Shown piece by piece: positions 1-47,290 of a DNA stretch of 64,000 nt. The stretch is from a virus, in the IMG/VR virus record IMGVR_UViG_3300028392_000054, positions 1 through 64,000 of that record; one strand, written 5' to 3'. The translations under genes were made by a program, and so were the position numbers. Position 1 is the first letter of the stretch. Each line of letters starts with the position of its first letter. Below the pieces are notes generated by a model, which saw only the letters and a program-made list of their open reading frames with translations, had not been told where the DNA came from and searched no databases.

Positions 1-861
1 AACAACTGGAACGTCAGATTAGAGGATTTGACTATGCCAGAGGGTTACCGCAACACCTCAGAGAACCAACTCGTAGTTCGTGACAACCCTTTTGATTCTG
101 GGGTAGATGTTCTCTCGGTTGTGGGTTCTCGTTACAAGGTAGTTCAGAACGAGGAACTATTCGCTTTTGGTGACGGTATCCTTGACGGTGGCGCAACTTG
201 GGAATCAGCCGGCTCTATCAAGGGCGGTAAGGTTGTCTTTGGTTCGCTAGTTGTTCCTCGTGAGTTCATCATTGACCCAGAGGGCGCAAACGACAAGACC
301 GTAACTTACTTGCTCGTTCACACCTCGCATGACGGTTCAACAGCAGTTCAGGCTAACATTACACCTGTAAGAGTTGTTTGCCAGAACACGCTAAACATGG
401 CAATCAAGGATTCTAAGCAGAGTTTCAAGATTCGCCACACCGCAACCGTCGGTGGCAGAATTGACGAGGCTCGTCGTGTTCTTGGTCTTACTTTTGACCA
501 CATGGACAACTTTGAAATCATGGCAAAAGCGCTTTACGAAACTGCCATGACAGACCAACAGTTCAACGACATCATCAAAGCCACTTATGCAGAGCCAGAA
601 AATGGCTCGGCTAAGGTTGCGCAAACTCGTTGGAACGATAAGGTTGACCTGCTAAACAATCTGTGGGAAAACTCACCTACCAACGCTACAATCAAGAACA
701 CCGCTTGGGGCGCTCTAAACACCATGACCGAACGCATTGACTACTTTAGAACAGGTAGAAAAGGTGGCGAGGCTATGATTGGAGCCGCCTCTGGATTTGA
801 CCCAGTTGTCAATGCCGAAAAGGCTCGCATACTAGGCGCAATCATGGAGTTCGCCAAGTAA
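1..861 (+). CDS. DUF932 family phage/plasmid-like protein (5' truncated by window)
   Basis: VGSRYKVVQNEELF, WESAGSIKGGKVVF, SHDGS, TPVRVVCQNTL and RHT motifs typical of DUF932; frame open from base 1. Confidence 0.85.
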   Translation, partial: NNWNVRLEDLTMPEGYRNTSENQLVVRDNPFDSGVDVLSVVGSRYKVVQNEELFAFGDGILDGGATWESAGSIKGGKVVFGSLVVPREFIIDPEGANDKTVTYLLVHTSHDGSTAVQANITPVRVVCQNTLNMAIKDSKQSFKIRHTATVGGRIDEARRVLGLTFDHMDNFEIMAKALYETAMTDQQFNDIIKATYAEPENGSAKVAQTRWNDKVDLLNNLWENSPTNATIKNTAWGALNTMTERIDYFRTGRKGGEAMIGAASGFDPVVNAEKARILGAIMEFAK

Positions 862-874
862 CACCAAATAAGTT

Positions 875-910
875 AGATAAGCCCTCTGCCAATCGGCAGG
901 GGGCTTATCT
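875..910 (+). terminator. GC-rich hairpin after DUF932, first element of repeated module copy 1
   Basis: AGATAAGCCCTCTGCC-aatc-GGCAGGGGGCTTATCT followed by GCTTT. Confidence 0.65.
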
Positions 911-913
911 GCT

Positions 914-990
914 TTGTTAGGTTGGTAACCTATTGCCTATGCCCGCTTGCGAAAAAGGCATATATAGGCAATAGGTTACCAACCCAACAA
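914..990. repeat. 27-bp-arm inverted repeat, copy 1
   Basis: TTGTTAGGTTGGTAACCTATTGCCTAT (914-940) / ATAGGCAATAGGTTACCAACCCAACAA (964-990), one mismatch. Confidence 0.95.
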
Positions 991-1026
991 GCCTATTACC
1001 ACAGTTTCTAATCCGACACGCCGTTC

Positions 1027-1115
1027 GTTACCTAATCGTTATGAGAGATTTATAACAGTATCGTTATGACTAAAATGCCTAAAATCCTATTTAGAGAGAG
1101 AGAAACCTATAAACT
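1027..1115 (+). promoter_or_regulatory. Putative early promoter 1: phased GTTAC/GTTAT boxes, (AG)5, -10 TAAACT
   Basis: GTTAC 1027, GTTAT 1038; ATAAC 1052, GTTAT 1063; (AG)5 1093-1102; TAAACT 1110-1115; -35 poor. Confidence 0.6.
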
Positions 1116-1123
1116 GTAACTAC

Positions 1124-1723
1124 ATGGAAATACACAACCAAACAGAAAGCGAGATTACCATGTTAGAGAACCAAGAGAACAACCAAGAACCAGAACTGAC
1201 CGTTGAGCAGAAGTTAGAGCAGATTGTATGTATGCCTCGTAACTTGCTTGAGGTATCAGATGTAACAGTAAAGCCAATCCTAGACATTTTAGGGCTGGAA
1301 GTAAGAGGTGTCGGTTTCTATTCAGAACCAACAGCCGAGCAGGTCACAATCCGTCAGGAACTCGTAAAACTAAACAAGTTAGTTGTAAATACTGAAACAA
1401 CAAGCGAACAGCGTTGGAACGATTTGAGGGATTTTCGTAGCAGGGTTGATAAGTTAGAGGAATACCTTGACGAGAACTGGGACAGCATTGACGAGGAAGT
1501 TCGTGACTTTTTGTGCGAAACTTTCAAAATTGACCAAGAAGTCACCAAAACCGTAAATGTCACAATCACAGGTTCATTAGACATAACAGCACCAAGAGGT
1601 TATGACTGGGACAACATTGAGGAGGACATTGAGATTGACGGTTCTGTTCGTATCACCAACTCTGACCTTGACGAAAGCGGTTACGGTTTCAGCGTTGACG
1701 ACACCGAAGTAGAAGTTGATTAG
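1124..1723 (+). CDS. Acidic hypothetical early protein (start may be ATG 1160)
   Basis: 199 aa ORF, very Asp/Glu-rich; SD-like GAAAG before 1160. Confidence 0.75.
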   Translation: MEIHNQTESEITMLENQENNQEPELTVEQKLEQIVCMPRNLLEVSDVTVKPILDILGLEVRGVGFYSEPTAEQVTIRQELVKLNKLVVNTETTSEQRWNDLRDFRSRVDKLEEYLDENWDSIDEEVRDFLCETFKIDQEVTKTVNVTITGSLDITAPRGYDWDNIEEDIEIDGSVRITNSDLDESGYGFSVDDTEVEVD

Positions 1724-1736
1724 AACTAAATAAACT

Positions 1737-1770
1737 TGTTAGGGGCTAGTTTCTAGGCTAGCCCCTAACA
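1737..1770. terminator. Hairpin after the acidic ORF
   Basis: TGTTAGGGGCTAG / CTAGCCCCTAACA 13-bp stem; ends resemble those of the large inverted repeat. Confidence 0.55.
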
Positions 1771-1795
1771 TACCAAGCCAGATTGGTTCTCTGGC

Positions 1796-1843
1796 GATAA
1801 GCCCACCAGTTATTTTCTTCCAAAGGTCGCTGGTGGGCTTATC
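1796..1843 (+). terminator. Hairpin, first element of module copy 2
   Basis: GATAAGCCCACCAG ... CTGGTGGGCTTATC followed by TATTTT. Confidence 0.6.
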
Positions 1844-1847
1844 TATT

Positions 1848-1922
1848 TTGTTAGGTTGGTTGCTTTGTTGCCTACCTGCGTTATTAGCAGATAGATAGGC
1901 AACAAAGCAACCAACCTAACAA
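1848..1922. repeat. 27-bp-arm inverted repeat, copy 2
   Basis: TTGTTAGGTTGGTTGCTTTGTTGCCTA (1848-1874) / TAGGCAACAAAGCAACCAACCTAACAA (1896-1922), perfect. Confidence 0.95.
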
Positions 1923-1931
1923 GTTTGTGCT

Positions 1932-2006
1932 GTTACATAATCGTGACCTAATCGTTACCTGTTCGTTACCATGTATCTTGCGTAAGAGAGAGAGTAGGTA
2001 TAAACT
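1932..2006 (+). promoter_or_regulatory. Putative early promoter 2: four phased GTNAC boxes, then TTGCGT-17-TAAACT
   Basis: GTTAC 1932, GTGAC 1943, GTTAC 1954, GTTAC 1965; -35 at 1978-1983; (AG)5 1985-1994; -10 at 2001-2006. Confidence 0.75.
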
Positions 2007-2035
2007 GAATACACAATCACAGAAAGGATTGAGAG

Positions 2036-2305
2036 ATGAAAGTCAAAGACCTAATCGCCGAATTACTAAAGCGTAATTCGTTAGAAGATGAAGTAGTAGT
2101 AGCCTATTACGATAGTGGTTATTGTATAGACGAAATACAGATGACAGCCCCAGCCAGAGAGATTATGGAACAGGCTTGGAAAGAGATTGCTGATGAGGCA
2201 CAAGAGATAGTTGAGGGTCACCTTGAGTTCACACAGACAGGTTACGAGATTAGTGACATGTTTGAGGAAAAGATAACAGAACTATTACAGAAAGAGGAAA
2301 ACTAA
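2036..2305 (+). CDS. Acidic hypothetical protein
   Basis: SD GAAAGGA; MKVKDLIAEL N-terminus common in small phage proteins. Confidence 0.8.
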   Translation: MKVKDLIAELLKRNSLEDEVVVAYYDSGYCIDEIQMTAPAREIMEQAWKEIADEAQEIVEGHLEFTQTGYEISDMFEEKITELLQKEEN

Positions 2306-2430
2306 TGTACGAAAATGTATTAGGAGAACAATTTGAGTTCTATTGCGAGGTATGTGGTAACTATGCCCATGAGGTATGTGACTGCTGTACCGAGTGTTTA
2401 GAAGTTGCTGACCTATGTGAGTGTAACTAA
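2305..2430 (+). CDS. 41-aa Cys-rich micro-protein (not in ORF track)
   Basis: MYENVLGEQFEFYCEVCGNYAHEVCDCCTECLEVADLCECN; TAATG coupling at both ends; GAGG SD. Confidence 0.75.
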   Translation: MYENVLGEQFEFYCEVCGNYAHEVCDCCTECLEVADLCECN

Positions 2431-2615
2431 TGCCTAAATACAGCGTGCCGATTACCTTTTGGGGAACTATTGAGGCTGAGAGTGCCGAACAAGCATGGCA
2501 GATAGTATCTGACGGACTATCTATAAAATGTGGTGTATTTGAGAATACTATGGTAGCAATAGGTATGACCGATACTGAACACCTACACGACGAGGTAGAG
2601 GAACTAGATGAATAA
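2430..2615 (+). CDS. Small acidic hypothetical protein
   Basis: Coupled start; IEAESAEQAW motif typical of small phage proteins. Confidence 0.75.
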   Translation: MPKYSVPITFWGTIEAESAEQAWQIVSDGLSIKCGVFENTMVAIGMTDTEHLHDEVEELDE

Positions 2616-2696
2616 CTATCTAATAACCCTGCTAAGCCGAATTATTATCCAACTATCCGTATTACACGCCAAACTTATTATGAAAGGTAAAAAATA

Positions 2697-3050
2697 ATGG
2701 CTCTATTAGAAATGCCTGTCATTGACAGAGAAACAATGTCGTCTGACCAAATCCACGCTATCTACCAGCAATACTGGCATGATAGACAACTACAAAGCGG
2801 AAATAACCTATTGTTTATGAAAGACAGAATAAAGCAGTTAGGTTATACATCTATGGCTGACTTCCGTAGGCAGAACCCTCGCCTTGTAGTTACTGCTGGA
2901 ACTATAACTAACTACTTTAGAGGCTATAGCACAATGTCGCCCCACACCGTAGTAGAGTTATCCTATGCTTTACGCATGACCCCAAATACATTTCTGTCCA
3001 TAATGGGTTACTACGACCCTAAGAAACAGACGATAGTAGAGGTAATCTAA
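2697..3050 (+). CDS. XRE/Cro-type HTH protein
   Basis: LGYTSMADF...TITNYFRG...LSYALRMTPNTFL pattern; SD GAAAGG. Confidence 0.65.
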   Translation: MALLEMPVIDRETMSSDQIHAIYQQYWHDRQLQSGNNLLFMKDRIKQLGYTSMADFRRQNPRLVVTAGTITNYFRGYSTMSPHTVVELSYALRMTPNTFLSIMGYYDPKKQTIVEVI

Positions 3051-3208
3051 TGAGTTCTCATGGAACCGATTGCTTATGCGTATTCTGTGGGACATTGTGC
3101 GAAATCTGCCTTCAGCCGTATCCTAGTGCTTGTTCCTGTCCCAATGAGGAAGATTGTAAGGTATGTAATGACCCTGATAGCGTAGAGGACTGTATCTACC
3201 ACCCATAA
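3050..3208 (+). CDS. 52-aa micro-protein with 10 Cys (not in ORF track)
   Basis: MSSHGTDCLCVFCGTLCEICLQPYPSACSCPNEEDCKVCNDPDSVEDCIYHP; TAATG coupling; GAGG SD. Confidence 0.7.
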   Translation: MSSHGTDCLCVFCGTLCEICLQPYPSACSCPNEEDCKVCNDPDSVEDCIYHP

Positions 3209-3272
3209 ATGTCGTGTAACGCTCATTACACGCTGGAATAGGCTTTTTCCACCTTTCTGTGCCTATTCCACC

Positions 3273-3305
3273 AACCCCCAGCCACATCTCTCTTGGCTGG
3301 GGGTT
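3273..3305 (+). terminator. Hairpin, first element of module copy 3
   Basis: AACCCCCAGCCA / TGGCTGGGGGTT stem followed by TT. Confidence 0.65.
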
Positions 3306-3319
3306 TTGGCTTATCAAGA

Positions 3320-3401
3320 TTGTTAGGTTGGAAGCCTTTAGCCTTAGCCGAGCCGAAGGGTGAAACGGGCTAAATAAGGCTAAAGGCTTCCAACCTAACA
3401 A
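3320..3401. repeat. 27-bp-arm inverted repeat, copy 3
   Basis: TTGTTAGGTTGGAAGCCTTTAGCCTTA (3320-3346) / TAAGGCTAAAGGCTTCCAACCTAACAA (3375-3401), perfect. Confidence 0.95.
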
Positions 3402-3405
3402 GATT

Positions 3406-3526
3406 GTTATGAAATCGTTACCATTTCGTTACCAAAGCCTATTGACTAATAGAGAGAGAGGTGCTATGTATGCGATTATAACGATTTGGTAACAACCAGC
3501 ATAGAGAGAGAGAAATAGTGTAGGCT
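3406..3526 (+). promoter_or_regulatory. Putative tandem promoters with phased boxes and (AG)5 spacers
   Basis: GTTAT 3406, GTTAC 3417, GTTAC 3428; TTGACT 3442 -17- TATGTA 3465 with (AG)5 3451-3460; ATAAC 3478/GTAAC 3489, (AG)5 3503-3512, TAGGCT 3521. Confidence 0.55.
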
Positions 3527-3898
3527 ACGCCCACCGTTTCGGCTACTGCCTAATAAGCCTATCAAGCGTGCAGGGATACGCCCAGATTGTAGGTTGTTTT
3601 ACTGGTTTTGTGTATCTGATGTATGTGTGAGAGAGAGAGAGAGGGCAGAGGCACGCAGTTACGCTACATCTAACTTATTACTCTCTATGTATTGTTCTCT
3701 CTCTTAGAGGTAGAAACAAAGAAATAAGCAAAGCCCCGATTTTCTTGTCGGGGGGTGGGTTCGCAGGTGACCAAAATCAAATGTTACAATAAGGTAACAA
3801 ATACGGAAATGCTGTATCCGATTGTCACCACTAGGGCTTAGACTACTTATACGAGGTCAGAGAGGCTGACCTCACTAAATCAGAAAGTATCAAATCTT

Positions 3899-5284
3899 AT
3901 GAGTATCGCCCTTTTAGTATCAACTGAAATGAAAGACGGTAAAGAACAGACCCTACTTGTTCCTACCGATAATGAAGTCCTAATGTTCCACCGTCTATCT
4001 ACTGGTGGTCGTGGTCGTGGTCAGGCATGGAACAAGGTCACAGATGTAACAACCTTGCCACAGACCCCAGCAACTAATAAGCCTGTCGCAGTTGCTATCA
4101 ACAGCACAGATGTATTTAACGCCAAGTTCGGAAATGTAACAGCCCTATCTAGTCGCCTTACTACCCTTGACGGTGAGTATCACTATGACGAGAGCAAGCG
4201 TATCTCACATCAGGCTTGGGTTACTGATTTGACCGAAAGGCTTATTGCTGGCGAGAGCAACTTGGCTCTCTATGTTCAGGACAAGCGTAGGCAATCCCCA
4301 GTAGTTATCAAGCCTATTACAGCAACAGAACCAGAGCCAGAATTGGAAATGGCTTTCGTGGCTATCAACAGCACAATCAACGAGCCTTTTAGTAATGTCG
4401 TGGCTATGCCACGCCCACAAGTCCAGACCGAAATGGCAACCGTTCCAGATAAGTCATGGGCTAACCGTTACCTCAACCGTAAAAATGTTAATAAGTCTGG
4501 TAAGACCGATTACGAAATGCTAGACATCATCAAGGCTAACAATCAGAACCTACTAATCAGAGGTCACGCTGGGTCAGGTAAGACCATGTGTGTTATCGCT
4601 TGGGCAGGTTCTAGGGAATACCGTTACTACAACATCTCTAGCAACATTGGGCTAGAGCCGAGCCACCTATTCGGTATGTGGATTCCGACAGAACAGGCTG
4701 GCGTATTTAAGTGGCAAGACGGTCCTGTAACAGACTTGGTAAGACATGGTGGCGTGCTGTTGCTCAATGAAATTGACTTCATGCCAGAACGCATTACAAC
4801 AGTTTTATTTGGCTTGCTAGATGATAGACGAGAAATCCAGTTGCTAGAAAATGGTGGCGAGGTAATCAAGGCTCACCCTGACCTAGTTGTAATCGGTGAC
4901 CACAACCCGAACTATCGTGGCTCTCGCCCTATGAACCAAGCGTGGAAAGACCGTTTTGCTCACAAGTGGGATTTTGAGTATGACAAGGCTATTGAGAAAA
5001 AACTTATTGGTAACACAACCCTATTAGAAGTGGCTAATCAGTTGCGAGAACAGCATGAACGAGGCGAGATTGACACGCCTATCTCTACCAGAGGTCTTGA
5101 GGCTTTCGTCAAGAACACTCACAATGTCAATCTTGATTACGCTGTTATTACTTATCTAAATAGTTTTGCTGATGATGAACGAGAGGCTGTCAAATTGGTA
5201 TTTGATACTGCTAAGGCTGGTATCGCTACTGGGTTTGGTATCGCTGTTGATGTAGAACTACAACTAGACGAGGTGGCTAACTAA
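3899..5284 (+). CDS. MoxR/CobS-like AAA+ ATPase with N-terminal extension
   Basis: Walker A GHAGSGKT, W.DGP, Walker B LLLNEID, AHPDL, NP.YRG.RPMNQAWKDRF, ISTRGL. Confidence 0.9.
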   Translation: MSIALLVSTEMKDGKEQTLLVPTDNEVLMFHRLSTGGRGRGQAWNKVTDVTTLPQTPATNKPVAVAINSTDVFNAKFGNVTALSSRLTTLDGEYHYDESKRISHQAWVTDLTERLIAGESNLALYVQDKRRQSPVVIKPITATEPEPELEMAFVAINSTINEPFSNVVAMPRPQVQTEMATVPDKSWANRYLNRKNVNKSGKTDYEMLDIIKANNQNLLIRGHAGSGKTMCVIAWAGSREYRYYNISSNIGLEPSHLFGMWIPTEQAGVFKWQDGPVTDLVRHGGVLLLNEIDFMPERITTVLFGLLDDRREIQLLENGGEVIKAHPDLVVIGDHNPNYRGSRPMNQAWKDRFAHKWDFEYDKAIEKKLIGNTTLLEVANQLREQHERGEIDTPISTRGLEAFVKNTHNVNLDYAVITYLNSFADDEREAVKLVFDTAKAGIATGFGIAVDVELQLDEVAN

Positions 5285-7377
5285 TGGCTAAGCCTAAAGT
5301 AAGTAGAGTTAGCGTTGATTCCACCCCTATCGGTAAGACATGGTGGGAGTGGCTTGCCGAGCAAGGCGAATCAGATTCCAGCATTTACAATAGCAAGGTA
5401 GATGTAGCCAAAGAAGTAAAAGCAACTGGTAAGACAGAGGCAGAAGTTATCATGCGTAGAAATACCTTGAGGGCAGAATTAGAAAACGAGTATGACTTTT
5501 ACATTGACAACGAAAGGTCTAAGATTGGTAGCGTGTTCCAAATGCGTAACAACACACTTGATAGCGTTGTTTCAGTTTATCAGCGTGCCGACAGGATTCT
5601 TACTGGTCTTAATGTTCTGGTATCCATAAGTGAAAATGAGGTAGCCCCTGCTTACAATGACGGTAAAGACATTGTATTTAGTGGAAAACTAATTAAAGAC
5701 CTTGACGAAAATACAGTATTGTCTTTACAAGGTCTTAATTACCATGAACTTGGTCACCTGCTATTCACGCCAAGAATCGGCACAGCGTTAGGCAAGTGGG
5801 TCATTGAGAAAGGTCTAAAGACTAAACAGACTAGTTATGACTACATGGATAGTGACGGTAAGGTTCAGACACACACTCGGTCATACTCAACAGAGGAACT
5901 GGTAGAACCTGCTCGCAACATGGCGTTTAACATCTTAGAGGATTGCCGAGCCGAGTATTACCTAACGCTTAAGTATCCTAGTATCAGACCTTTCATGGTA
6001 ACCCTATTAGGTGATTACATACTTGATAATAAGTTAGATAAGTTAGGCGAACAGTTTATCCTGCTCGCTGGTCGCAAGTATTTCTCGCTTGAGTTACGCA
6101 AGATGTCTGCCCAGATGTTCATAGCCGAGCATGGCTTAGACAAGGCTAAGGCTCTCTACGACATTTTGACCGAGTATCGCACTCTCGTATTCCCTCGCCA
6201 GTATGACAGGGCTAAAGAACTGATTACAGAGTTCATAGCCCTACTACCTAAAGACGACAATGGCAATCCAAAGCCAGTAGGTCAGAACCCTAATGGCTGT
6301 ATCCATAGAGAACCTATGCGAAATGGCAGACCTACTACCGAGAAAGAACAAGAGGCTCTCGCTGGCAACGCTGGCACAGGTAAAGACCCTCTCGGTGATG
6401 AACTCGGCAAAGGGCTTACTGCTGGCAAAGGTAAGTTTGAGGAAACTGGTGAGATTAATTCCGAAACTGCTGGTTTTAATACCAAAGACGAGGAAGTAAT
6501 TAGGGAATTACAAGAGGTCGTTCAGCGTGCTAAGGCTGATAAGTCTTTACAGAAAAAGGTTAGTGACACGCTTAAGGCTATTCAGAAAGACCGTAGTAGC
6601 AAATCTATCCTAGAGAAAACTAGGGCTGGCAATTACACGCCAGAGATGTCAGAGGTTACTGCTAGTCGCTTGTTCGCACAAGAACTAGAACTGCTAAGAA
6701 TAGAAAGTGACCCTGCTTGGAACAGAGAAAAGCCAAGTGGCAAGTTAAATGTCAAGCGTGCCATGAACGCAGACATTAACAGGATAGATACGCTATTTGA
6801 CCGTTGGCAAGAGGGTAATGATGATTACGACATTGAGGCTAGTATCCTGATTGACAGGTCTGGCTCTATGTATTCCGAGATTGGTTCTGCTTGTCGGTCT
6901 GCTTGGGTAATCAAGCGTGCCATAGAACGAATCAACGGTAAAGTATCTGTATCTGTATTCAGCGATTACGGTAGGGAACTGTTTGACAGAGATACCCTTG
7001 CGAGTGCCACAGATGTTCGTATCGTAGAGGCTGGTGGCGGAACTGACCCTAGCCAATCCCTAGCCGAAACAGCAAGAATAATGGATAATACAACTGCTAA
7101 AACTAAATTAGTATTTATTCTTACTGACGGTGAGTGGTATAAACCTGCTGTTGCTGATAGCAAGATTGAGCAACTAATTAAACAAGGCTGTTATGTAAGC
7201 GTAGTCTGGCTTGGTAGCCATGAATACGCCAAGACTATTATGGCTAACCCTAAGCAAGTTATCCAATACACACATGGGGCTAACTCGTTCAGGACTATCC
7301 AGCAACCTAGCGAACTAGTTAAGGTCGCTAAAGATGTGGTTAAAGCACAGATGAACCGTAGCAAAGTCAGGGGTTAG
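5284..7377 (+). CDS. CobT-like VWA domain protein with N-terminal HExxH metallopeptidase-like domain
   Basis: YHELGH and FNILEDCRAE; MIDAS DRSGSM, GGT, LTDGE; coupled to the AAA gene. Confidence 0.88.
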   Translation: MAKPKVSRVSVDSTPIGKTWWEWLAEQGESDSSIYNSKVDVAKEVKATGKTEAEVIMRRNTLRAELENEYDFYIDNERSKIGSVFQMRNNTLDSVVSVYQRADRILTGLNVLVSISENEVAPAYNDGKDIVFSGKLIKDLDENTVLSLQGLNYHELGHLLFTPRIGTALGKWVIEKGLKTKQTSYDYMDSDGKVQTHTRSYSTEELVEPARNMAFNILEDCRAEYYLTLKYPSIRPFMVTLLGDYILDNKLDKLGEQFILLAGRKYFSLELRKMSAQMFIAEHGLDKAKALYDILTEYRTLVFPRQYDRAKELITEFIALLPKDDNGNPKPVGQNPNGCIHREPMRNGRPTTEKEQEALAGNAGTGKDPLGDELGKGLTAGKGKFEETGEINSETAGFNTKDEEVIRELQEVVQRAKADKSLQKKVSDTLKAIQKDRSSKSILEKTRAGNYTPEMSEVTASRLFAQELELLRIESDPAWNREKPSGKLNVKRAMNADINRIDTLFDRWQEGNDDYDIEASILIDRSGSMYSEIGSACRSAWVIKRAIERINGKVSVSVFSDYGRELFDRDTLASATDVRIVEAGGGTDPSQSLAETARIMDNTTAKTKLVFILTDGEWYKPAVADSKIEQLIKQGCYVSVVWLGSHEYAKTIMANPKQVIQYTHGANSFRTIQQPSELVKVAKDVVKAQMNRSKVRG

Positions 7378-7382
7378 GCACT

Positions 7383-7532
7383 ATGATAGAACCTATCCTC
7401 TATGGAGTTGTGTTACCGTTTGGATTGTTCGGGCTGGAAACAATAGTCTTAGCAATCTGGTTACACAGGACAACAGCACCAAAACCAAAACAAAATAAAC
7501 TAATTAAGAAAGGCAAGACAAATGGGCGATAG
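7383..7532 (+). CDS. Small single-TM protein (not in ORF track)
   Basis: MIEPILYGVVLPFGLFGLETIVLAIWLH followed by a basic tail. Confidence 0.5.
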   Translation: MIEPILYGVVLPFGLFGLETIVLAIWLHRTTAPKPKQNKLIKKGKTNGR

Positions 7533-7896
7533 AAGTTCTATCTACATTATCAGCAAGGGCTTACCAAAGCCGATACAGATTTACGGTCACTATGGGTATG
7601 ATGATAACGCCAGAGCCACAGCCATAGTTCTCAGCAACACCAAGAGGCTCGGTGACGCTTGGTATCTAACAGCACAATTGTTCTACCAGTTTGCAATCGT
7701 TCAGGGTGGCTATGTGGGTGTGGATAGTTTCGGTATCGGTTCTGTTGATACCCTTAGCAATTCTGACGAGAATCCACCTATCTATCTAAACGCCGATAAT
7801 GGTGAGGTTGAGTATGGTGGCATGGATTACACAAAGACAGAGTTCGTAGAGGAGTTTGGCAAGTTGGCTGGACTAGATTGGATAAGTAACACATGA
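7522..7896 (+). CDS. Hypothetical early protein
   Basis: SD GAAAGG; MGDRS..IYGHYG type of phage hypothetical. Confidence 0.8.
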   Translation: MGDRSSIYIISKGLPKPIQIYGHYGYDDNARATAIVLSNTKRLGDAWYLTAQLFYQFAIVQGGYVGVDSFGIGSVDTLSNSDENPPIYLNADNGEVEYGGMDYTKTEFVEEFGKLAGLDWISNT

Positions 7897-8087
7897 TTAC
7901 AATGAATAAAACAGCGTGGGTCGCTAGTGACGGTTCTTATGGGGCTGGCACAATAATCTTGTTTGACCCTAATGAACTCACAGATTTAGAGTGGGAGATT
8001 GTCGCAGAGGAAACGAGTGACATGGACAGGCTAGATGTAATAAAGCAAATACTAAATAATAAGAAAATAGGAGAAACAAATGATTAA
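7893..8087 (+). CDS. Hypothetical protein
   Basis: ATGA overlap, 64 aa. Confidence 0.7.
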   Translation: MITMNKTAWVASDGSYGAGTIILFDPNELTDLEWEIVAEETSDMDRLDVIKQILNNKKIGETND

Positions 8088-8319
8088 AACTAATAAGCAA
8101 GTAGAAACATCTTGGGCTTGGTTCGTAGCACGCTACAAGAAACTCGGCTACAAATCTCTCAACCAGTTCGCAATCGCAACAGGCTTTCAGAAGTCTAGCC
8201 TATCCAGATACTTTCACCTTGAGAGGCAGATACCTAGTGGCATGATGTCGGCTTTATGTAGCACGCTAAAGGTCAGCCCTAATACCCTGATGAAAGTCAT
8301 TGGCGAGGAGTGGAACTAA
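8080..8319 (+). CDS. XRE/Cro-type HTH protein
   Basis: LGYKSLNQFAIATGFQKSSLSRYF..ERQIP..LCSTLKVSPNTL; SD AGGAG. Confidence 0.8.
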   Translation: MIKTNKQVETSWAWFVARYKKLGYKSLNQFAIATGFQKSSLSRYFHLERQIPSGMMSALCSTLKVSPNTLMKVIGEEWN

Positions 8320-8510
8320 TGGAAACTTACAGCGTAATACTTACCAGCGACAGCACAACTTTCATCACGACCATAGACTATAAGTATGAGGGTGAGGAAG
8401 AACTAGACGAGGACAAGTTGTATGACTTGGCGATTGCTCGTATTAAAGACGAGGAAGGCATTGACCTTAGTAATAGACGGTTGGACTTTACATACGAGGA
8501 GATTAACTAA
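8319..8510 (+). CDS. Small acidic hypothetical protein
   Basis: TAATG-coupled start at 8319; SD GAGGAG. Confidence 0.7.
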   Translation: METYSVILTSDSTTFITTIDYKYEGEEELDEDKLYDLAIARIKDEEGIDLSNRRLDFTYEEIN

Positions 8511-8686
8511 TGGCTAGTGTGACCATAGAGGTTCGTCAGGTCTATAAAATTACAGTTACAGGTGACGAGTTCTGGGGTGATGTCTTAGACAAAGCCCTAA
8601 AGACTTATTACACAACTGGCGTAGAGATAGATGAAGTAACCCTATTAAGTGCTGATAACGAGTTTATTGAGAGTGAGGAGAACTAA
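8510..8686 (+). CDS. 58-aa acidic hypothetical protein (not in ORF track)
   Basis: MASVTIEVRQVYKITVTG...; TAATG coupling at both ends; GAGGAG SD. Confidence 0.7.
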   Translation: MASVTIEVRQVYKITVTGDEFWGDVLDKALKTYYTTGVEIDEVTLLSADNEFIESEEN

Positions 8687-8808
8687 TGAGCAACTGGGAA
8701 GTTAAAGACGACCAAGATGTTTCGTGGTGGCATTGTGGTCGCCCTGCCTATTGGGAAAATGATGATGTGTATTGTTCTAAATGCCAAGAAAAGTTAGAGG
8801 AGAATTAA
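8686..8808 (+). CDS. 40-aa Zn-ribbon-like micro-protein (not in ORF track)
   Basis: MSNWEVKDDQDVSWWHCGRPAYWENDDVYCSKCQEKLEEN; GAGGAG SD. Confidence 0.7.
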   Translation: MSNWEVKDDQDVSWWHCGRPAYWENDDVYCSKCQEKLEEN

Positions 8809-9042
8809 ATGTTTAACTATGACGGTTGGCTAGAAAGCCCATACACAGACGAGGGTATGGATTGTTCAGAGAGTTATTGCTCTCTATGCTGGACAGATTG
8901 CGAGGAGTGCGATACGCAAGGCGAACTAGACGGAGTGACTTGCCCTAAGTGTGAGGGCGAGGGGGCTTTTTATTACGACCAAGCCAGCGATTACGAACAC
9001 CGATACGAACATGACGCAAGCCAAACACCAGACGACAAATAA
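8809..9042 (+). CDS. Cys-rich protein with DnaJ-like CxxCxGxG Zn motifs
   Basis: CEECDTQG...CPKCEGEG. Confidence 0.7.
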   Translation: MFNYDGWLESPYTDEGMDCSESYCSLCWTDCEECDTQGELDGVTCPKCEGEGAFYYDQASDYEHRYEHDASQTPDDK

Positions 9043-9051
9043 GGAAAACAA

Positions 9052-9525
9052 ATGACAATACCCGAATTACAATTACTAATAAGCCTGATACCACTAGCCT
9101 ATGTCGGTGGTGCTATGATACCGATTTTTCACTCGGACTACACTCGTAATAAAGTTTCTAATAAGATAGTTGTGCCTTTAATGGTTCTGACCTTGTTGTG
9201 TTGGCTGACCTTAGCAATCTGGCAGGGCGAGTGGCTAAAGTTCGGTATCTCTATCCTATTCTTTATAGGAACTATCCTGTTTGGTTTCTTCATAAACATT
9301 AAGTATGACCTATTAGGTATGGGTGACATAAAACTATTAGCAATCTTGTCTATGATACTGTCGTGGTTTTCATGGGGAGTAGCCCTTGTATTCTTACCAG
9401 TAACAGCAGTTTTATCACTTGTAGTAGGGTTCTTTGTAGTAATGCTCTCTAACGCAAAAGACATGAGGTTATCACCAGTAGTCTTTATAGCCTTCGGATT
9501 CCTAATGGCAGTAGCCATGAATTAA
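9052..9525 (+). CDS. A24 family prepilin peptidase (short TadV/CpaA type)
   Basis: Multi-TM; first Asp in SDYTRNKVSN; GMGDIKL motif; C-terminal LSP. Confidence 0.8.
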   Translation: MTIPELQLLISLIPLAYVGGAMIPIFHSDYTRNKVSNKIVVPLMVLTLLCWLTLAIWQGEWLKFGISILFFIGTILFGFFINIKYDLLGMGDIKLLAILSMILSWFSWGVALVFLPVTAVLSLVVGFFVVMLSNAKDMRLSPVVFIAFGFLMAVAMN

Positions 9526-9542
9526 ATAGCAATTAAATAATT

Positions 9543-9568
9543 AAGCCCTCAGAAATGAGGGCTTTTTT
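9543..9568 (+). terminator. Rho-independent terminator ending the early block
   Basis: AAGCCCTCA-gaaa-TGAGGGCTT followed by TTTT. Confidence 0.85.
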
Positions 9569-9628
9569 ATTGCCCAAAGTTCCTAGGACCAGCTCAGCTC
9601 AGGGCGGGAGAGATGTAGGAGAGGTAAA

Positions 9629-9713
9629 AGAGAGAGAGAGATTTAAATAGCAAAAAAGCCCATAACCGTATTTGGCTATGGGCTTTAATGAGAGAGAGAG
9701 AGAGAGAGAGAGA
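9629..9713. repeat. (AG)n microsatellites flanking the nrdJ terminator
   Basis: (AG)6 at 9629-9640 and (AG)11 at 9691-9712. Confidence 0.9.
9652..9686 (-). terminator. Terminator for nrdJ
   Basis: AAAAAAGCCCATA...TATGGGCTTT; U-tract on the - strand. Confidence 0.75.
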
Positions 9714-9714
9714 T

Positions 9715-11748
9715 TTACTGGTTGTCTTTAATTAGTTTTATTTCACAAGCGTCAGTAGTACAATAAGCCTCACCGATAGCCTCAATACCTAAGCCCTGAT
9801 ACACGCCAGCAAAGTCAATAGGGAATAGTTCCATAGCATACTGGTCGTATTCCGCTTGAGAGATTTGAGAGTAAGGCATTTGAGGATAGACATGGTTACC
9901 CATTGGCAAGAAAGAGATCGTTTTTAACTGACCGTCGTACATGTGGAGAACTGTACCTACATCTTTAATTTCTTTTTCAGCGTCAAAAGAGATAGTCACA
10001 GACACAGAGTTATCTGACCACCAGCGTTGAGCAGTCGCAGCGAGAGCAACCTTTTCGTAGATAGATACATCTTTTTCAGAACGCTTAGCAAGAGATTTAA
10101 TAGGGAAGAACACCACAGAAGTCTTAGTAGTGTTTTCACTAGCAGGTTCTACTCGGTAATTAGCCATTTTAAAGAGAGAGAGCATAGGGTCATCATTACC
10201 AAAGCGGATGGCACGCAAGAAGTATTCGCCGCCTGGGGTCCAATGTACGCCTGGACTTTCACCAGAGAGAATAGATACAGTACCAGAAGGCTTTATTGTA
10301 GTTGTTTTAATGCTTTCTCGTATTCCAAGCCACTCAGAATAGCTTTTATCGTAATTAACGATAGTCTTGTAGCCTTCATCCATCCACTCACGAAGCACTG
10401 GAAGCCCGTTGATGTCAGCGAAGTTAGCCACACCAGACATAGAAGTTCCAATGCGTCTGTTCCTTTGCATGATAGCGTTAGTTTCTTCCCAGTGAGTAGG
10501 CAAGAGTGTAACAGTCTTAGCATAGAGATAAGCAAACTTGAGAGTACGCTTGTAGTCCTCAAGAGATTCATGTCTATTTAGATAAGTTTCTACCAGAGTA
10601 CAGCACTCAAACGATTCGAGAGATTGCTCGGCACATGGGTTATAGCCCGCAGCACGCCAATCTTTATTGTTAGGTTGGTCGGCTAATCTACCATACTTAC
10701 GAGTTACATCCATCCAAATAACTCCAGGCTCACCATTGAGAGCGATACCATCTACAATTGCAGAGAGGTCTGTACCCACAGCGGTTTCTACAGAGTTATT
10801 AGACATCCAAGCCCAGCCTGGATTTTCTGGGTCATAAGAGTTACGTTCTGGGAAACGCTCAGCATTTTTGAGATTTAAGAAGTTATCGTCATCTATACGC
10901 CCAAGCAACAGCTCAGCAGAACGGCGAACGTTACCTGAAACTACGCAAACACCAATCATATTACCTATATCCGCAATATCAATTCGGGTTATCTTATTTC
11001 CAGCCCTACCAGCAAAGAGTTTTCTAATGTGCGTGTGCAATTTTAGAAGCGGTTCGTGTCCCGCAGCAGTTCCGCCGAAGGTAGCAATAGGTGCGCCAAA
11101 TGGTCTAATGCTGTCGTAATTAAATACCCAAGTAGGCTGGTCTGGCTTTAAATAAGCATTTATTAAAGCAACAGTACTATCTACCCAACCCTCTCGCGTG
11201 TCAGGGATATCGAACACTTGTTCGCCTTTTGGCTCATAGATGTCAAAGCCTTTATCAGCACCTTTGTCATCAAAGCCCACACCCACACCCAGCATCGAGG
11301 CTTCCATCAGGAACGCAAACGGCTTAGCAGGGTTGTTTTTAGACATTTCATTAGTAGAAACAAATGCGCAATTCTGCAAAGCAGCACTATTCTTTTGCTC
11401 ATTTACCAAAGGCGTACCCATTACCCAAAGACCTCGGCCAGGCGGAGTCCACTTGAGATTAAACAGGCGGTCAAACGCTTCTTTAGCGGAAGCCTGTGCC
11501 TTAGCGTCGTTCCAAGGCAAACGGTTAGTCTTAGCGTGGTCTTTCTGAAGCGAGTACATACCGTTGATGACACGCTCACATACATCAGTCCAAGTTTCTT
11601 TAGTACCGTCAGCCTTTAGGCGAGAGTAAGTACGAAGAAAGGTAATCTCTCCAACAGAGTTACCAGCAACATCTTTAAACCCCCAAGGTACTACTTTGTT
11701 CTTGTAGCCTTCTACGAAGTCGTTTGTTAATTTAAATGATAATGACAT
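9715..11748 (-). CDS. nrdJ: Class II adenosylcobalamin-dependent ribonucleoside-triphosphate reductase
   Basis: RTYSR, PPGRGLW, QNCAF, NVRRSA, NPCAEQ, TIKPSGTVS, C-terminal YCTTDAC; start placed at MSLSF after AGGAA SD. Confidence 0.95.
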   Translation of the reverse strand: MSLSFKLTNDFVEGYKNKVVPWGFKDVAGNSVGEITFLRTYSRLKADGTKETWTDVCERVINGMYSLQKDHAKTNRLPWNDAKAQASAKEAFDRLFNLKWTPPGRGLWVMGTPLVNEQKNSAALQNCAFVSTNEMSKNNPAKPFAFLMEASMLGVGVGFDDKGADKGFDIYEPKGEQVFDIPDTREGWVDSTVALINAYLKPDQPTWVFNYDSIRPFGAPIATFGGTAAGHEPLLKLHTHIRKLFAGRAGNKITRIDIADIGNMIGVCVVSGNVRRSAELLLGRIDDDNFLNLKNAERFPERNSYDPENPGWAWMSNNSVETAVGTDLSAIVDGIALNGEPGVIWMDVTRKYGRLADQPNNKDWRAAGYNPCAEQSLESFECCTLVETYLNRHESLEDYKRTLKFAYLYAKTVTLLPTHWEETNAIMQRNRRIGTSMSGVANFADINGLPVLREWMDEGYKTIVNYDKSYSEWLGIRESIKTTTIKPSGTVSILSGESPGVHWTPGGEYFLRAIRFGNDDPMLSLFKMANYRVEPASENTTKTSVVFFPIKSLAKRSEKDVSIYEKVALAATAQRWWSDNSVSVTISFDAEKEIKDVGTVLHMYDGQLKTISFLPMGNHVYPQMPYSQISQAEYDQYAMELFPIDFAGVYQGLGIEAIGEAYCTTDACEIKLIKDNQ

Positions 11749-11896
11749 AGCATTTCCTATTCTTTTATTTGTTTGGGGTAGTGTTCTAGTATAGGTCATC
11801 CCTGTTAGAAGATGATCCGGAAGCGGAAGGTGGGTGTGTTATTTTGAATCAATTTAGGACTATGCCATTTCAGGCGTTTTTTAATACATATATCAG

Positions 11897-13342
11897 CTAT
11901 ATGTCAGTCGTGTTTATCTTCTTAATTATCTCGTTTGTCTGGTCTTCATTGTATCCGTTATTAGGTAGTTCAGTCAATTTTTGAGCCCTATCGCCGAATA
12001 AACTGGACAAAACTCCAGCCGAATTTCCACGCTCAACAGAGATTCTCATAGTCTCTTTTGACTCGTCTAATTCTTTAATAGTCTTAAGCATTTTAAAGAA
12101 TCTATCCATCTCTAGACCTGTATTTGGGTCAGGATATCCGCCGTTTAAATCCTCTGCAAACTTGGCAAATGCCACTCGTTGCCCTTGTATTTCAAGGAGT
12201 GAGTTAATTAGACCCTTAAGTTGTTCCTTGGTTTTTACCTCAACTGGTAGGTTAAACGCACAAGGGTTATCCACCTTAAAAGCAGGACAGTTATCCTTGA
12301 CAAAACAAGAATTACACTGGCGTAGGCTAGTGCTATTTGAACGAAGAACAGGTACATCTTTAATTACATCACGACCAGTTTCATCCGTCTCAATGACACG
12401 TGAAACTTCTACTCCAAGAACAGGTAAAGTACGCATTTCGAGTGGATTTCGCTGTAAAAGTTTGACTGATTCAGATGCTGATATATCAGTATTAGAGGGG
12501 GTAGTTTGACTATTTTGAGGGGGTAACATTTCACCACTTATATCTGATATATGTTTAGTGCTATCAGCCCATATTTCTAGCTGTTGATACGACCATACGG
12601 CGAGCCTAGAGACCTCAACAGCGTCATCTGCAAGTATCTTATCGAAGTTTAAGTTAGCCTCTTCATAAGCGGCTTTATAGCGTGAGCGAGCCTGGTCTTT
12701 CATACGTTTAGGGTAACGGTGTAGTTGATTACCAAACCATACGATAGTTTCGCCCCTCATCATAGGAGATAACCAAGCAAGCGTGCTAGTAGTCTCAAAC
12801 GGCGAGTTACGGAACTTATCAGGCTTGATAGACCCTAAAATGTGAAACTTAGTACCATGCTGGGAAGAAAACTTGCGGCACATCGGCTCAAGTGCTTCTG
12901 CTACATTTCCAGCAATAAAAACATTTAAATATCTAGTGGCAAGGCTTTCTAAACTACCTTCGGTATAAACAACACCAAACTTAGTATCATCTACCTCATT
13001 CCACACAGACGCCCGCTGCTGGGTAATAAACTCTTGAGACAGATTTGGGTGGCTTATTTCACTAAAAAGGGTAATTCTATTCAGGTTATCTGAAATAAAC
13101 TCCTCATAGTCGGCACAAAAGTCCTCTAATTCCTCATCCGTTAAGCTGGCTGTAGCCGGTATGCCTGGATACACATATACTTCTACCTCATCTTTAAAAT
13201 AGTTCTCTAATAAATATTTTTTAGTCTTTGGTAAACCACGCTTTACAAGGCCCCAATAACTAACGCCAACCTTTTGAGCGTTTGAGTGGTCTAAGATAGT
13301 GCGGTTGCTAGGTACTTCTGCACCTAAATAAATTATCTTCAT
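11897..13342 (-). CDS. Hypothetical: possible degenerate TGT/DpdA-like barrel plus Cx2Cx5Cx8C cluster
   Basis: KFHILG...PFETTSTLAW resembles the HxFG...PxxSxDSxSW segment of TGT-like phage proteins; CNSCFVKDNCPAFKVDNPC. Confidence 0.4.
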   Translation of the reverse strand: MKIIYLGAEVPSNRTILDHSNAQKVGVSYWGLVKRGLPKTKKYLLENYFKDEVEVYVYPGIPATASLTDEELEDFCADYEEFISDNLNRITLFSEISHPNLSQEFITQQRASVWNEVDDTKFGVVYTEGSLESLATRYLNVFIAGNVAEALEPMCRKFSSQHGTKFHILGSIKPDKFRNSPFETTSTLAWLSPMMRGETIVWFGNQLHRYPKRMKDQARSRYKAAYEEANLNFDKILADDAVEVSRLAVWSYQQLEIWADSTKHISDISGEMLPPQNSQTTPSNTDISASESVKLLQRNPLEMRTLPVLGVEVSRVIETDETGRDVIKDVPVLRSNSTSLRQCNSCFVKDNCPAFKVDNPCAFNLPVEVKTKEQLKGLINSLLEIQGQRVAFAKFAEDLNGGYPDPNTGLEMDRFFKMLKTIKELDESKETMRISVERGNSAGVLSSLFGDRAQKLTELPNNGYNEDQTNEIIKKINTTDI

Positions 13343-23673: not shown

Positions 23674-24048
23674 CTATGGTTGTCTACTAGCTTTTTTAGC
23701 AAGTTCTTCTAAAGTAGTTCCTTGCTTTTTAGCTTTACGTTTTAAGGCGTTTCGTTCACGATGGCTCATGCCGCCCCAGATACCGTGCACTTCATCGTTC
23801 TTATCCGCAAACATAAGGCATTGTAATCTTACTGGGCATTCACCTTTGCCATCACGGCCAAAACAAATTGATTTAGCTTTGTCTGCTATTGGCTTATACA
23901 GGTCTTTATCTCTTGGCGGAAACCAAAGGTCTGGATTATATACGAATACATAATCTTTGGTTTTGTCATCATATTTTCTGGTACCGCACTTGGATTCATA
24001 TTGCCAAGGGTCTGGTTCTGAAAGAAAGCTAGTAAACGGGGTAGACAA
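23674..24048 (-). CDS. whiB: WhiB family Fe-S transcription factor
   Basis: C...PDLWFP...AKSIC...CPVRLQCL...GIWGGMSHRER. Confidence 0.93.
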   Translation of the reverse strand: MSTPFTSFLSEPDPWQYESKCGTRKYDDKTKDYVFVYNPDLWFPPRDKDLYKPIADKAKSICFGRDGKGECPVRLQCLMFADKNDEVHGIWGGMSHRERNALKRKAKKQGTTLEELAKKASRQP

Positions 24049-30976: not shown

Positions 30977-30998
30977 ACCTATAGTTTACCATAAAAAG

Positions 30999-31069
30999 CT
31001 GGTTCTGTAGGAGTCGAACCTACGCCTGCGGTGTTGGAGACCGCCGTGCTACCGTAACACTTAGAACCA
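30999..31069 (-). tRNA. trnW: tRNA-Trp (CCA anticodon); 3' CCA not encoded
   Basis: TGGTTCT/AGAACCA acceptor stem, GCGGT-CTCCAAC-ACCGC anticodon arm, GTAGG-TTCGACT-CCTAC T arm. Confidence 0.92.
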
Positions 31070-32011: not shown

Positions 32012-32032
32012 GTGAATATTTTATCAGTTTAG

Positions 32033-32105
32033 AGCCCCCAACAGGACTTGAACCCGTCACCTACGCATTACAAGTGCGTCGCTCTACCAGATGAGCTATA
32101 GGGGC
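32033..32105 (-). tRNA. trnT: tRNA-Thr (TGT anticodon); 3' CCA not encoded
   Basis: GCCCCTA/TGGGGGC acceptor stem, GCTC/GAGC D arm, ACGCA-CTTGTAA-TGCGT anticodon arm, ACGGG-TTCAAGT-CCTGT T arm. Confidence 0.92.
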
Positions 32106-46571: not shown

Positions 46572-47276
46572 TTACTTAACGCCGTAGATATAATATGTCG
46601 ATGTAGTAGGAGCAGTGGCGTGAGAAAAAGTAATGTTTGTAATTGCTCCAGTAATTGTTCCACCAGAAATATATGAACCAGCTCCCCAACCAAGTGCGTT
46701 TGTCCAGTTAATTGGTTTAGTACCTGATGCGGATGCGTTATAAATTTCTGCTTGCAATGCGTCACCGCTAGCAGGGGCAGCATTATTAGTTATTGGAAGA
46801 CCAGTAGTAGCAGCATTATCTCCTACAACAGTTGGAGAAGCGGCATAGTTAAACCTACCAAATTTTTGTAAAGTAGAGCTATTAACGTTCATATCAACTT
46901 TGCTTCCAGAAGTCATGTTTTGGAAATAAATAATTACAACTACTTTATTATATCCCGTAGTAGTGATTGAAACTGAAGTTGAGGTGCTAGCTAGAGAACC
47001 AGTAGCAAGTTGTGTATATCCGACACGTGTACCGTTAGTACCATCACCTGTAAGTCCGGCTTCTAAGTTATTTAATCTAGCTGCTACAGTAGTGTTTGTT
47101 CCGGATGCGTTATACGTACCACCAGTTGCAATTATAGAAGTCCTTGGAGTAGTACCGAGCTCGCCTTCAATTGCCTGGATTTCTCCTTGAACGCTGTTCA
47201 TATCAGCAGCTAATACTGTGTCAACACCATCTACTTTATTAGTATAGGTTTTTAACGAAGCTGGATAAGTTGCCAT
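46572..47276 (-). CDS. Minor tail/fibre-associated protein
   Basis: MATYPASL..DGVDTVLAADMNSVQGEI..IE..LG N-terminus; YIYGVK C-terminus. Confidence 0.7.
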   Translation of the reverse strand: MATYPASLKTYTNKVDGVDTVLAADMNSVQGEIQAIEGELGTTPRTSIIATGGTYNASGTNTTVAARLNNLEAGLTGDGTNGTRVGYTQLATGSLASTSTSVSITTTGYNKVVVIIYFQNMTSGSKVDMNVNSSTLQKFGRFNYAASPTVVGDNAATTGLPITNNAAPASGDALQAEIYNASASGTKPINWTNALGWGAGSYISGGTITGAITNITFSHATAPTTSTYYIYGVK

Positions 47277-47290
47277 TTATTTATTCTCCT

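Follow-up and report, generated by a model that had tools for sequence, protein, structure and literature searches.

The window analysed here comprises 64,000 nucleotides (nt) of IMG/VR virus record IMGVR_UViG_3300028392_000054, bases 1-64000 of an 81,729-bp linear viral contig with an estimated completeness of 89%, and our subject is the gene arm at its left end, positions 1 to 9590, from which nearly every palindromic tetramer is missing. The open reading frames (ORFs) of 1-9525 are on the plus strand; from 9.7 to 80.4 kb every long ORF is on the minus strand, apart from those of a small lysis island on the plus strand at 33-36 kb. The arm holds a DUF932 gene, a pair of genes for an AAA+ ATPase and a VWA-domain protein, and a series of small ORFs (Table 1), and is closed by a terminator-like hairpin and T run. 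The desert of restriction-type words ends 27 nt past that hairpin with the first two copies of AGCT, at 9591 and 9596, immediately before the minus-strand replication genes that converge on the arm.

Throughout 1-9590 there is no copy of AGCT, GGCC, TCGA, GATC or CGCG, where 21-36 copies per word are expected from base composition and 10-48 from a Markov model. The same expectations hold for ACGT, CCGG, GTAC and TGCA. The rare survivors are single copies of ACGT (position 11) and CCGG (209), two of GTAC (2307 and 2387), three of TGCA (588, 3569 and 7692) and two of ATAT (960 and 962), the last both in a hairpin loop and set against about 40 expected. GCGC occurs six times, never beyond position 836 and always inside the first ORF; TTAA is missing from 1-4115; and CATG and CTAG, with 40 copies each, are not depleted. 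Pooling the ten words AGCT, GGCC, TCGA, GATC, CGCG, ACGT, CCGG, ATAT, GTAC and TGCA gives 9 sites in the block versus 254 predicted from their rate in the rest of the genome (26.5 per kb, about 1,900 sites in the other 72 kb). Coding and intergenic DNA are affected together, with 6 sites versus 216 expected in the former and 3 versus 37.7 in the 1,424 nt of the latter. The longest site-free gaps in the block measure 4123, 1899, 1345 and 1182 nt, compared with a maximum of 372 nt elsewhere. When all 136 strand-symmetric tetramer classes were ranked by depletion relative to the rest-of-genome rate, the top ten were all palindromes.

An earlier note on this DNA, written from the letters without database searches, had named the same five words as absent and CCGG, TGCA, GTAC and ACGT as rare. 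Every one of these counts was right, as were the positions of the first two AGCT copies, and the terminator that it placed at 9543-9568 is essentially where it was said to be (hairpin 9543-9564, then the T run). It had also described AGCT and GGCC as common beyond the border and GATC as rare, which agrees with 388, 144 and 34 copies, respectively, in the remaining 72,139 nt of the contig; ATAT occurs there 305 times. Codon usage, which the note had named as a possible explanation, does not account for the depletion: in 500 synonymous-codon shuffles within each of 18 block ORFs, which preserve the proteins and the codon usage of the block, none was as low as the observed count for 13 of the 16 palindromic tetramers, the exceptions being CATG, CTAG and GCGC. 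The G+C content is alike on either side of the border (0.436 in the block, 0.422 in the rest).

The purge extends beyond palindromes. GAAGC, CATTC, CATCG, CCATC, GAGAC and GACTC, for which the codon shuffles predict 9-14 copies each, are absent from the block ORFs, and CTTC, CTCC and GAAGA are strongly lowered by the same comparison. Judged against the rest-of-genome rate, the block contains no GGATG (12.5 expected), GCAGC (24), CCWGG (13.6), GAGAC (8.1), GACTC (9.4) or CCATC (17). Several of the missing asymmetric words are recognition words of well-known type IIS enzymes. At least ten four-bp palindromes and eight or more other 5-bp words are affected, and the breadth of the purge shows how far selection can strip coding sequence, with more than twenty words gone from about 10 kb. 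The dipeptides Met-His, Met-Gln and Trp-Pro, which cannot be encoded without TGCA or GGCC, are missing from the block as well, at 0 versus 5.4 expected, small as these numbers are.

The desert recurs in relatives. We compared our contig with 19 others of viral origin and differing sample numbers in which the ATPase gene, the VWA gene or both are present, 20 contigs in all; ATPase identity across them is 56-95%, and orthologues of the ATPase are found in 19 of the 20, the remaining contig (L011) beginning inside the VWA gene. The desert is present in all 20 of these freshwater contigs. Each was scored by how many of the 16 palindromic tetramers are missing from its ATPase and VWA orthologues compared with synonymous shuffles of the same genes: the score is 8-12 in all 18 contigs with near-full coverage of the pair and 5 in each of the two with partial coverage (L128 and L011), and the orthologues from ChisanaKitsune and Cantare, cultured phages of Gordonia and Brevibacterium, have scores of 0 and 2, respectively. 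No desert is present in the whole genomes of Alone3, ChisanaKitsune, Cantare and BRock.

Within the two genes, AGCT, GGCC, CCGG and TGCA are at zero in 20 of 20 contigs and CTAG is avoided in none, while ACGT, CATG, GCGC, GTAC, ATAT, AATT, TCGA and GATC are either absent or near expectation according to lineage, in an all-or-none manner; AATT, for example, switches in L136 and L138. Asymmetric words switch between lineages in the same way. Since each lineage has its own all-or-none forbidden set, the selection is ongoing and changing, and restriction is the only agent that fits both these sets and the asymmetric, enzyme-type words. The position of the block is conserved as well: it converges on the same TGT-like gene in all 15 contigs that reach past it (with the reductase in between in nine), and the identity of the ATPase and VWA proteins drops in step with that of the adjoining TGT gene. 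To judge from these comparisons, the block is an old, vertically inherited part of the phage family that is kept clean by selection.

Table 1. Features of the purged arm and of the region beyond its inner border (positions in the window)
Feature	Position	Strand	Remarks
Restriction-word desert, plus-strand gene arm	1-9590	+	upstream end cut by contig start
DUF932 protein, 5'-truncated by contig end	1-861	+	Pfam PF06067 E 3e-53; PHROG 1221
Intergenic module 1	863-1123	+	terminator-like hairpin 874-911; inverted repeat 914-940/964-990; 11-bp TCGTTACC-type repeats 1024-1044
Acidic 199-aa protein	1124-1723	+	isoelectric point (pI) 4.07; D+E 49 vs K+R 17; no known family
Intergenic module 2	1836-2035	+	inverted repeat 1848-1877/1893-1922; four phased 11-bp repeats 1924-1982; (GA)n run; TATAAAC
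Six small ORFs, 41-117 aa	2036-3208	+	five acidic (two Cys-rich), one basic
Intergenic module 3	3308-3445	+	inverted repeat 3312-3346/3375-3409; 11-bp repeats 3398-3445
AAA+ ATPase, MoxR/CobS-like (AAA_5)	3899-5284	+	Pfam AAA_5 E 3e-16, 60 bits vs cut-off 22; PHROG 249 E 5e-46
VWA-domain protein, CobT-like	5284-7377	+	Pfam matches below curated cut-off (23.3 vs 26.4); 'CobT-like' annotated homologues in Gordonia phages
Eight small ORFs	7383-9042	+	including conserved 124-aa protein 7522-7896 and Cro/C1-type helix-turn-helix (HTH) protein 8080-8319; others acidic
Membrane protein with type IV prepilin-peptidase (A24) domain, last gene of arm	9052-9525	+	PF01478 E 3e-6, 28 bits vs cut-off 26.5
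Intrinsic-terminator-like hairpin and T run closing the arm	9543-9571	+	hairpin 9543-9564
Converging terminator-like hairpin of minus-strand replication genes	9655-9686	-	
Class II (B12-dependent) ribonucleotide reductase	9715-11799	-	first gene outside desert; site density normal
TGT/DpdA-like protein	11897-13342	-	PHROG 887 'queuine tRNA-ribosyltransferase' E 1e-35; syntenic anchor with BRock gp36
WhiB-family gene	23743-23937	-	PF02467 E 8e-14, above cut-off; within replication module

The arm itself is made up of a variable proximal part and a conserved core. The DUF932 gene lies in the former, where the purge is less strict; it holds three of the nine surviving sites and all six copies of GCGC, and a tblastn search of the relatives' loci found a match only in L137 (75% identity). 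It looks like a more recent arrival from which the purge is so far incomplete; DUF932 genes are common on conjugative elements. The three intergenic modules are built alike: a hairpin whose arms measure 27-35 bp and whose ends are conserved (TTGTTAGGTTGG...CCAACCTAACAA) is followed by TCGTTACC repeats phased at 11 bp, and in modules 1 and 2 a (GA)n run and TATAAAC stand directly before the next gene (in module 1, ahead of the ATG at 1124). They are probably early promoter/operator units. Runs of (GA)n, 9-26 nt long, occur upstream of early genes at 1093-1105, 1988-1996, 3452-3461, 3503-3513 and 3623-3643, and two more, at 9620-9640 and 9688-9713, sit between the converging terminators at the block border. 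An Rfam scan of 1-12000 yielded nothing that reached the gathering score.

The ATPase and VWA genes form the conserved core of the strictest desert; a role for the pair in cobalt chelation seems unlikely in this context. Most of the small block proteins have an acidic pI, 4.05-4.3, and several are cysteine-rich. For the 199-aa acidic protein, the ESM Atlas returned unnamed viral clusters only, and a fold predicted from a three-row alignment was unusable (predicted local distance difference test score, pLDDT, of 52). The model of the conserved 124-aa protein (pLDDT 84) is an alpha/beta domain that has no match in the PDB at E <= 0.001 and six in BFVD at the same threshold, all uncharacterised viral proteins with no named function, including one from Streptomyces phage StarPlatinum. 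When contigs of four public runs were placed on 1-12000, counting covered parts only, small ORFs showed gene-sized deletions or replacements at 2296-2429, 8056-8058, 8315-8505, 8652/8679-8808 and 8850-9050; the first of these is seen in runs X1 and X5 as a joint from 2296 to 2429 that removes the ORF at 2305-2430 from some strains. In natural populations the block is a gene-turnover hot spot, and these changes suggest that turnover is fast in the proximal part. Such variants, deletions and replacements are also the reason why the contigs of several relatives break inside the arm.

At the inner border, strand and base skews shift, and the two converging terminator-like hairpins and two (GA)n runs are found, with nothing seen there like the 1-kb repeat region of phage T5. 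The second gene beyond it, which encodes the TGT/DpdA-like protein, gave no Pfam match at E 0.01 and no PDB sequence match; DNA modification by its product is possible. The 81.7-kb contig, 89% complete, has no QueC (PF06508), the search having covered this one preQ0 gene and supply by the host being possible, and none of the three DNA methyltransferase families sought in the contig is present.

The rest of the contig identifies the phage as a myovirus, with genes for a tail sheath, baseplate, portal, major head protein and large terminase (TerL); the full genome is of roughly 87-92 kb. Its replication genes include a family A DNA polymerase, a DnaB-like helicase, a UvsX-like recombinase and the class II ribonucleotide reductase, and a RuvC-like resolvase and a Cas4-like exonuclease are also encoded. 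TerL is nearest to those of Streptomyces phages (BRock, Alone3 and others, 54% identity), the VWA protein is nearest to those of Gordonia and Brevibacterium phages, and the contig carries a WhiB-family gene, whose profile matched only Corynebacterium glutamicum among 14 control genomes. Together these features indicate that the host is probably an actinobacterium, most likely one of the freshwater Actinobacteria; runs X1, X2 and X5, among those that hold sequence of this phage, bear freshwater labels, which we take as labels only. A near-identity search of 1-9600 against 50,697 phage records gave no match. Two tRNA genes, for Trp (CCA) and Thr (TGT), lie on the minus strand at 30998-31069 and 32032-32105.

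The present contig begins inside the arm, and the position of the arm in the genome has to be sought in a relative. A complete genome of 87,293 bp (G006), assembled as a circle with a 114-bp end overlap, is collinear with the contig; its desert runs from a convergent junction at about 31.2 kb to about 47.0 kb, an arm of about 15.8 kb, so that by comparison about 5-7 kb of the arm is missing here. At the outer edge in G006, site density rises from 5 to 12-18 sites per 500 nt within a divergent intergenic region (46,942-47,373). This region contains about eight AGGTGAAC/AGGTAAAC repeats at 46,960-47,200 (L142:6960-7200), a small conserved hairpin, GTTAGGCAGTAGCCTAAC, that also occurs in G001, and a TCGTTACC array facing the other, non-purged arm; either the genome ends or an origin are candidates for a location here. 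That other arm, with its TCGTTACC array, and the plus-strand lysis island of the contig at 33-36 kb are both non-purged, and gene orientation is therefore not the cause of the desert; on the guess that a common array implies common early timing, early promoters by themselves can also be discounted as the cause. A plus-strand ORF of 194 aa at contig positions 80711-81295 (L004:18711-19295), which seems to conflict with this layout, was rejected as probably spurious because G006 has at the matching place four to six small genes in a tidy operon on the other strand.

A cultured relative offers a comparison for the physical ends. Phage BRock is described as having a 221-bp direct terminal repeat with well-defined margins (PMC7453282), and in its record the first 221 nt are identical to the last 221 nt. 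Synteny between BRock and G006 spans the replication and structural modules. In BRock, gp1-gp27 point inward from the physical left end and converge on genes of the minus strand, among them gp36, which is homologous to the TGT-like gene, and the right-end genes run inward from the other end. No DNA similarity was detectable between the ends of BRock and the divergent region of G006. By position, the desert arm would be the counterpart of the BRock left arm, and the divergent region would mark the genome ends.

We thus read the block as an early arm that lies beside a genome terminus of an actinobacterial myovirus, is exposed first and works in the manner of T5 first-step-transfer DNA, and give this reading a probability of roughly 0.55. 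The genome would be linear and bear short terminal repeats, with the arm at its leading end. The arm would enter and be expressed first, inward from the end to the terminator at 9543-9571, and the remaining 75-80 kb would become accessible only after protection was in place, whether this consisted of arm products or of modification of the virion DNA. Host restriction-modification would then remove nearly every recognition-type word from the arm, coding and non-coding alike; a cut there would be fatal, and sites elsewhere would go unseen by the same enzymes. The logic is that losing one site among hundreds gains nothing if the others are seen, and a purge of one arm alone implies both that a cut in it is decisive and that sites elsewhere are hidden. 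The borders of the desert coincide with those of one transcription arm, at the terminator in the present contig and between the convergent junction and the divergent region in G006.

Much of this had been proposed in the earlier note, which took the block to be exposed to host restriction before protection exists, like a first-injected segment, with T5 two-step injection as the comparison, or a terminal repeat. The depletion is real and fits restriction, and the synteny with BRock fits a first-entering segment. A terminal repeat on the T5 scale is not supported: the block is single-copy in G006 (an assembly in which a repeat may have collapsed), the BRock repeat measures 221 bp, and word-depth over 3.6-9.6 kb does not exceed that over 9.6-12 kb in runs X3 and X5, with no two-fold step, although this last is weak evidence. 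The lack of a similar boundary in relatives, which the note said would point to a chimera or recent transfer, can be set aside, as the same border is conserved in them and both explanations are ruled out. Shielding of the remaining genome by early products, also suggested in the note, is a form that the protection may take. The small ORFs it put forward as anti-restriction factors are indeed mostly acidic, with no match to a known anti-restriction family.

Several observations weigh against our reading. The termini are placed through synteny with a single cultured relative whose TerL is 54% identical and which has neither a desert nor the ATPase/VWA pair. The circular assembly of G006 fits short terminal repeats but equally fits headful packaging, which would provide no fixed leading end. 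The purge is strictest over the promoter-distal 8-9 kb and looser proximally, the opposite of the gradient expected if the DNA that is first in is longest exposed; turnover of the proximal genes may be the cause of the looser purge there. ATAT is purged, yet no enzyme is known to cut plain ATAT. None of 17 of the 18 main block ORFs matches a known anti-restriction family in PHROGs or Pfam. Finally, there is a second tier of avoidance in the rest of the genome (9591 to 81729), where GATC is found 34 times versus 159 expected, CTGCAG (22.7 expected), AGATCT (18.8), GCATGC (13.7) and GGCGCC (8.6) are absent, and GAATTC and TGATCA are reduced to 1 (16.2) and 2 (16) copies, respectively. The rest of the genome is thus also under restriction pressure, for a few words only; it is not invisible to all enzymes, and the proposed shield over it would be incomplete.

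The alternative that best survives, though clearly the less probable, is that the whole genome enters at once and only the early arm must stay uncut, as the template for nuclease inhibitors and repair functions, while cuts elsewhere are resealed or rescued by recombination. This would suit the exact coincidence of the desert with a promoter-to-terminator arm, the UvsX-like recombinase, RuvC-like resolvase and Cas4-like exonuclease that the phage encodes, and a purge that is strictest over conserved core genes, not at the proximal tip; needing no fixed leading end, it also suits the circular assembly of G006. However, a 4-bp cutter acting on the roughly 1,900 sites of the other 72 kb would leave pieces of a few hundred bp, and exonucleases could enter the arm from the nearest cut, only 27 nt past the terminator. 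The purge is as strong in intergenic DNA as in the genes, and a second arm with the same upstream repeat array is unpurged, neither of which is what survival of a template would lead one to expect.

We consider it unlikely, more so than the foregoing, that the virion DNA is modified, for example with 7-deazaguanine by the TGT/DpdA-like enzyme, and that the arm is purged where it lacks or cannot tolerate the modification. The TGT/DpdA-like gene lies near the arm and is kept in all 15 contigs that extend to it and also in BRock, only a subset of words is avoided in the rest of the genome as if a modification covered some sites, and DpdA enzymes are described as motif-specific and protective against restriction (PMC7544227, PMC10484667, PMC6884629). 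Against this, ATAT, which contains no G, is purged from the arm and common elsewhere, and AATT switches likewise; no mechanism is known that would make a motif-directed transglycosylase pass over 10-16 kb; the TGT-like protein has no Pfam TGT or PDB sequence match; and the contig has neither QueC nor any of the three methyltransferase families.

It is improbable that restriction is not involved at all, and that the arm instead dodges the phage's own nucleases or DNA marks or has lost its palindromes for structural reasons. The purge of ATAT, which no enzyme is known to cut, would fit such a cause, but more than twenty words that differ between close lineages would require many fast-changing phage enzymes; and since CTAG is never avoided, CATG is not avoided here and inverted repeats of 27-35 bp are kept, palindromy as such is not selected against. 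Codon usage and strand orientation are ruled out as causes by the shuffles and the lysis island, as chimera and recent transfer are by the relatives. The last possibility, a foreign or promiscuous module with the word usage of another genome, or a chimeric contig, might have explained the skews that change at the border and the proximal genes that vary between strains, but it is close to refuted by equal G+C content, the same junction in 15 of 15 contigs of differing sample numbers, ATPase/VWA identity that tracks that of the TGT neighbour, words that switch by lineage inside orthologous genes, and the absence of a purge in cultured phages that bear the pair.

Should the early-arm reading hold, the forbidden sets of the lineages could indicate which restriction enzymes abundant freshwater Actinobacteria possess and help to pair phages with their hosts. 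Sequence alone would have sufficed to mark off the exposed part of an uncultured phage to within a few tens of bases, and fixed termini and polar entry would be predicted for a phage family never grown in the laboratory. Comparing the lineages would also narrow the candidates for a general anti-restriction shield to a few conserved genes. No such shield has been identified even in T5, and the recent BF23 study states that the means by which second-step DNA of T5-like phages is protected 'remains to be determined' (PMC10644984). A bolder and doubtful extension is that these freshwater actinobacterial myoviruses form a family with ordered DNA entry and a broad shield against type II restriction, facing the same problem as T5 with its second-step DNA, in which the shield or the entry gate is made by the genes conserved in the strictest desert of every lineage, those for the 124-aa and HTH proteins and for the MoxR-type ATPase with its VWA partner. 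The switching of words would in that case record, in readable form, the restriction enzymes that circulate in each host lineage, including specificities such as plain ATAT for which no enzyme is known.

Among known systems, the closest in principle is the first-step DNA of T5, BF23 and other Tequintavirus members, likewise a stretch of about 10 kb in which small early genes adjoin an end of the genome. T5-like phages are reported to resist type I and type II systems unless sites lie in first-step DNA (PMC10644984), so that restriction is effective only through that block, which is the logic proposed here. The present arm is alike in being nearly free of recognition-type words, with ten tetramers and several pentamers absent or nearly so. 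The differences are considerable. According to the annotation of its record, the T5 block is a direct terminal repeat of 10.2 kb that carries a stop signal for injection, whereas no long repeat was seen here; its pre-early genes A1, A2 and dmp did not appear in PHROG and Pfam scans of 17 block ORFs, in which no direct search for them was made; and T5 is a siphovirus of E. coli, in contrast to a myovirus probably of Actinobacteria. Moreover, T5 first-step DNA (1-10219) shows no tetramer desert when set against the next 40 kb (AGCT 25 and 55 copies, GATC 26 and 33, GCGC 55 and 9), and the comparison is thus one of principle, not of pattern: the arm works like T5 first-step DNA and is not a member of the T5 system.

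BRock resembles the present phage in its left arm, gp1-gp27, where small hypothetical genes run inward from a physical end to meet a replication module with a TGT-like gene, but it has no desert and no ATPase/VWA pair, and its genome of 112.5 kb carries 29 tRNAs. For Murciavirus (Autographiviridae), the position of a restriction motif in the first-injected part is reported to decide sensitivity, and selection is proposed to be concentrated there; that 2025 study generalises the T5 logic and states that the argument fails for headful packaging (PMC12455610). Murciavirus and T7-type entry involve one type I motif in podoviruses whose DNA entry is driven by transcription, whereas more than twenty words are cleared from 10-16 kb of a myovirus here. 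The leading regions of conjugative plasmids are described as depleted of restriction targets and rich in anti-defence genes (PMC12455610); they too are first-entering DNA, but they enter as single strands and use single-strand promoters, and no ArdA-, Ocr- or similar family was found here in PHROG and Pfam scans. Genome-wide avoidance of palindromic sites by selection has been described in phages (Rusinov et al. 2018, PMC6286503) and usually concerns few sites; here GATC and a few 6-bp sites are avoided everywhere, and nearly all 4-bp palindromes in one arm only. Outside subscription journals and supplements, which the search did not cover, we found no account of a desert of many words that is restricted to a single arm of a phage. 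The principle is already in print for T5 and BF23, T7, Murciavirus and the leading regions of plasmids; the form appears to be new, a sharply bounded arm of 10-16 kb that is cleared of more than twenty words across a family of uncultured actinobacterial myoviruses, with a forbidden set that switches from lineage to lineage.

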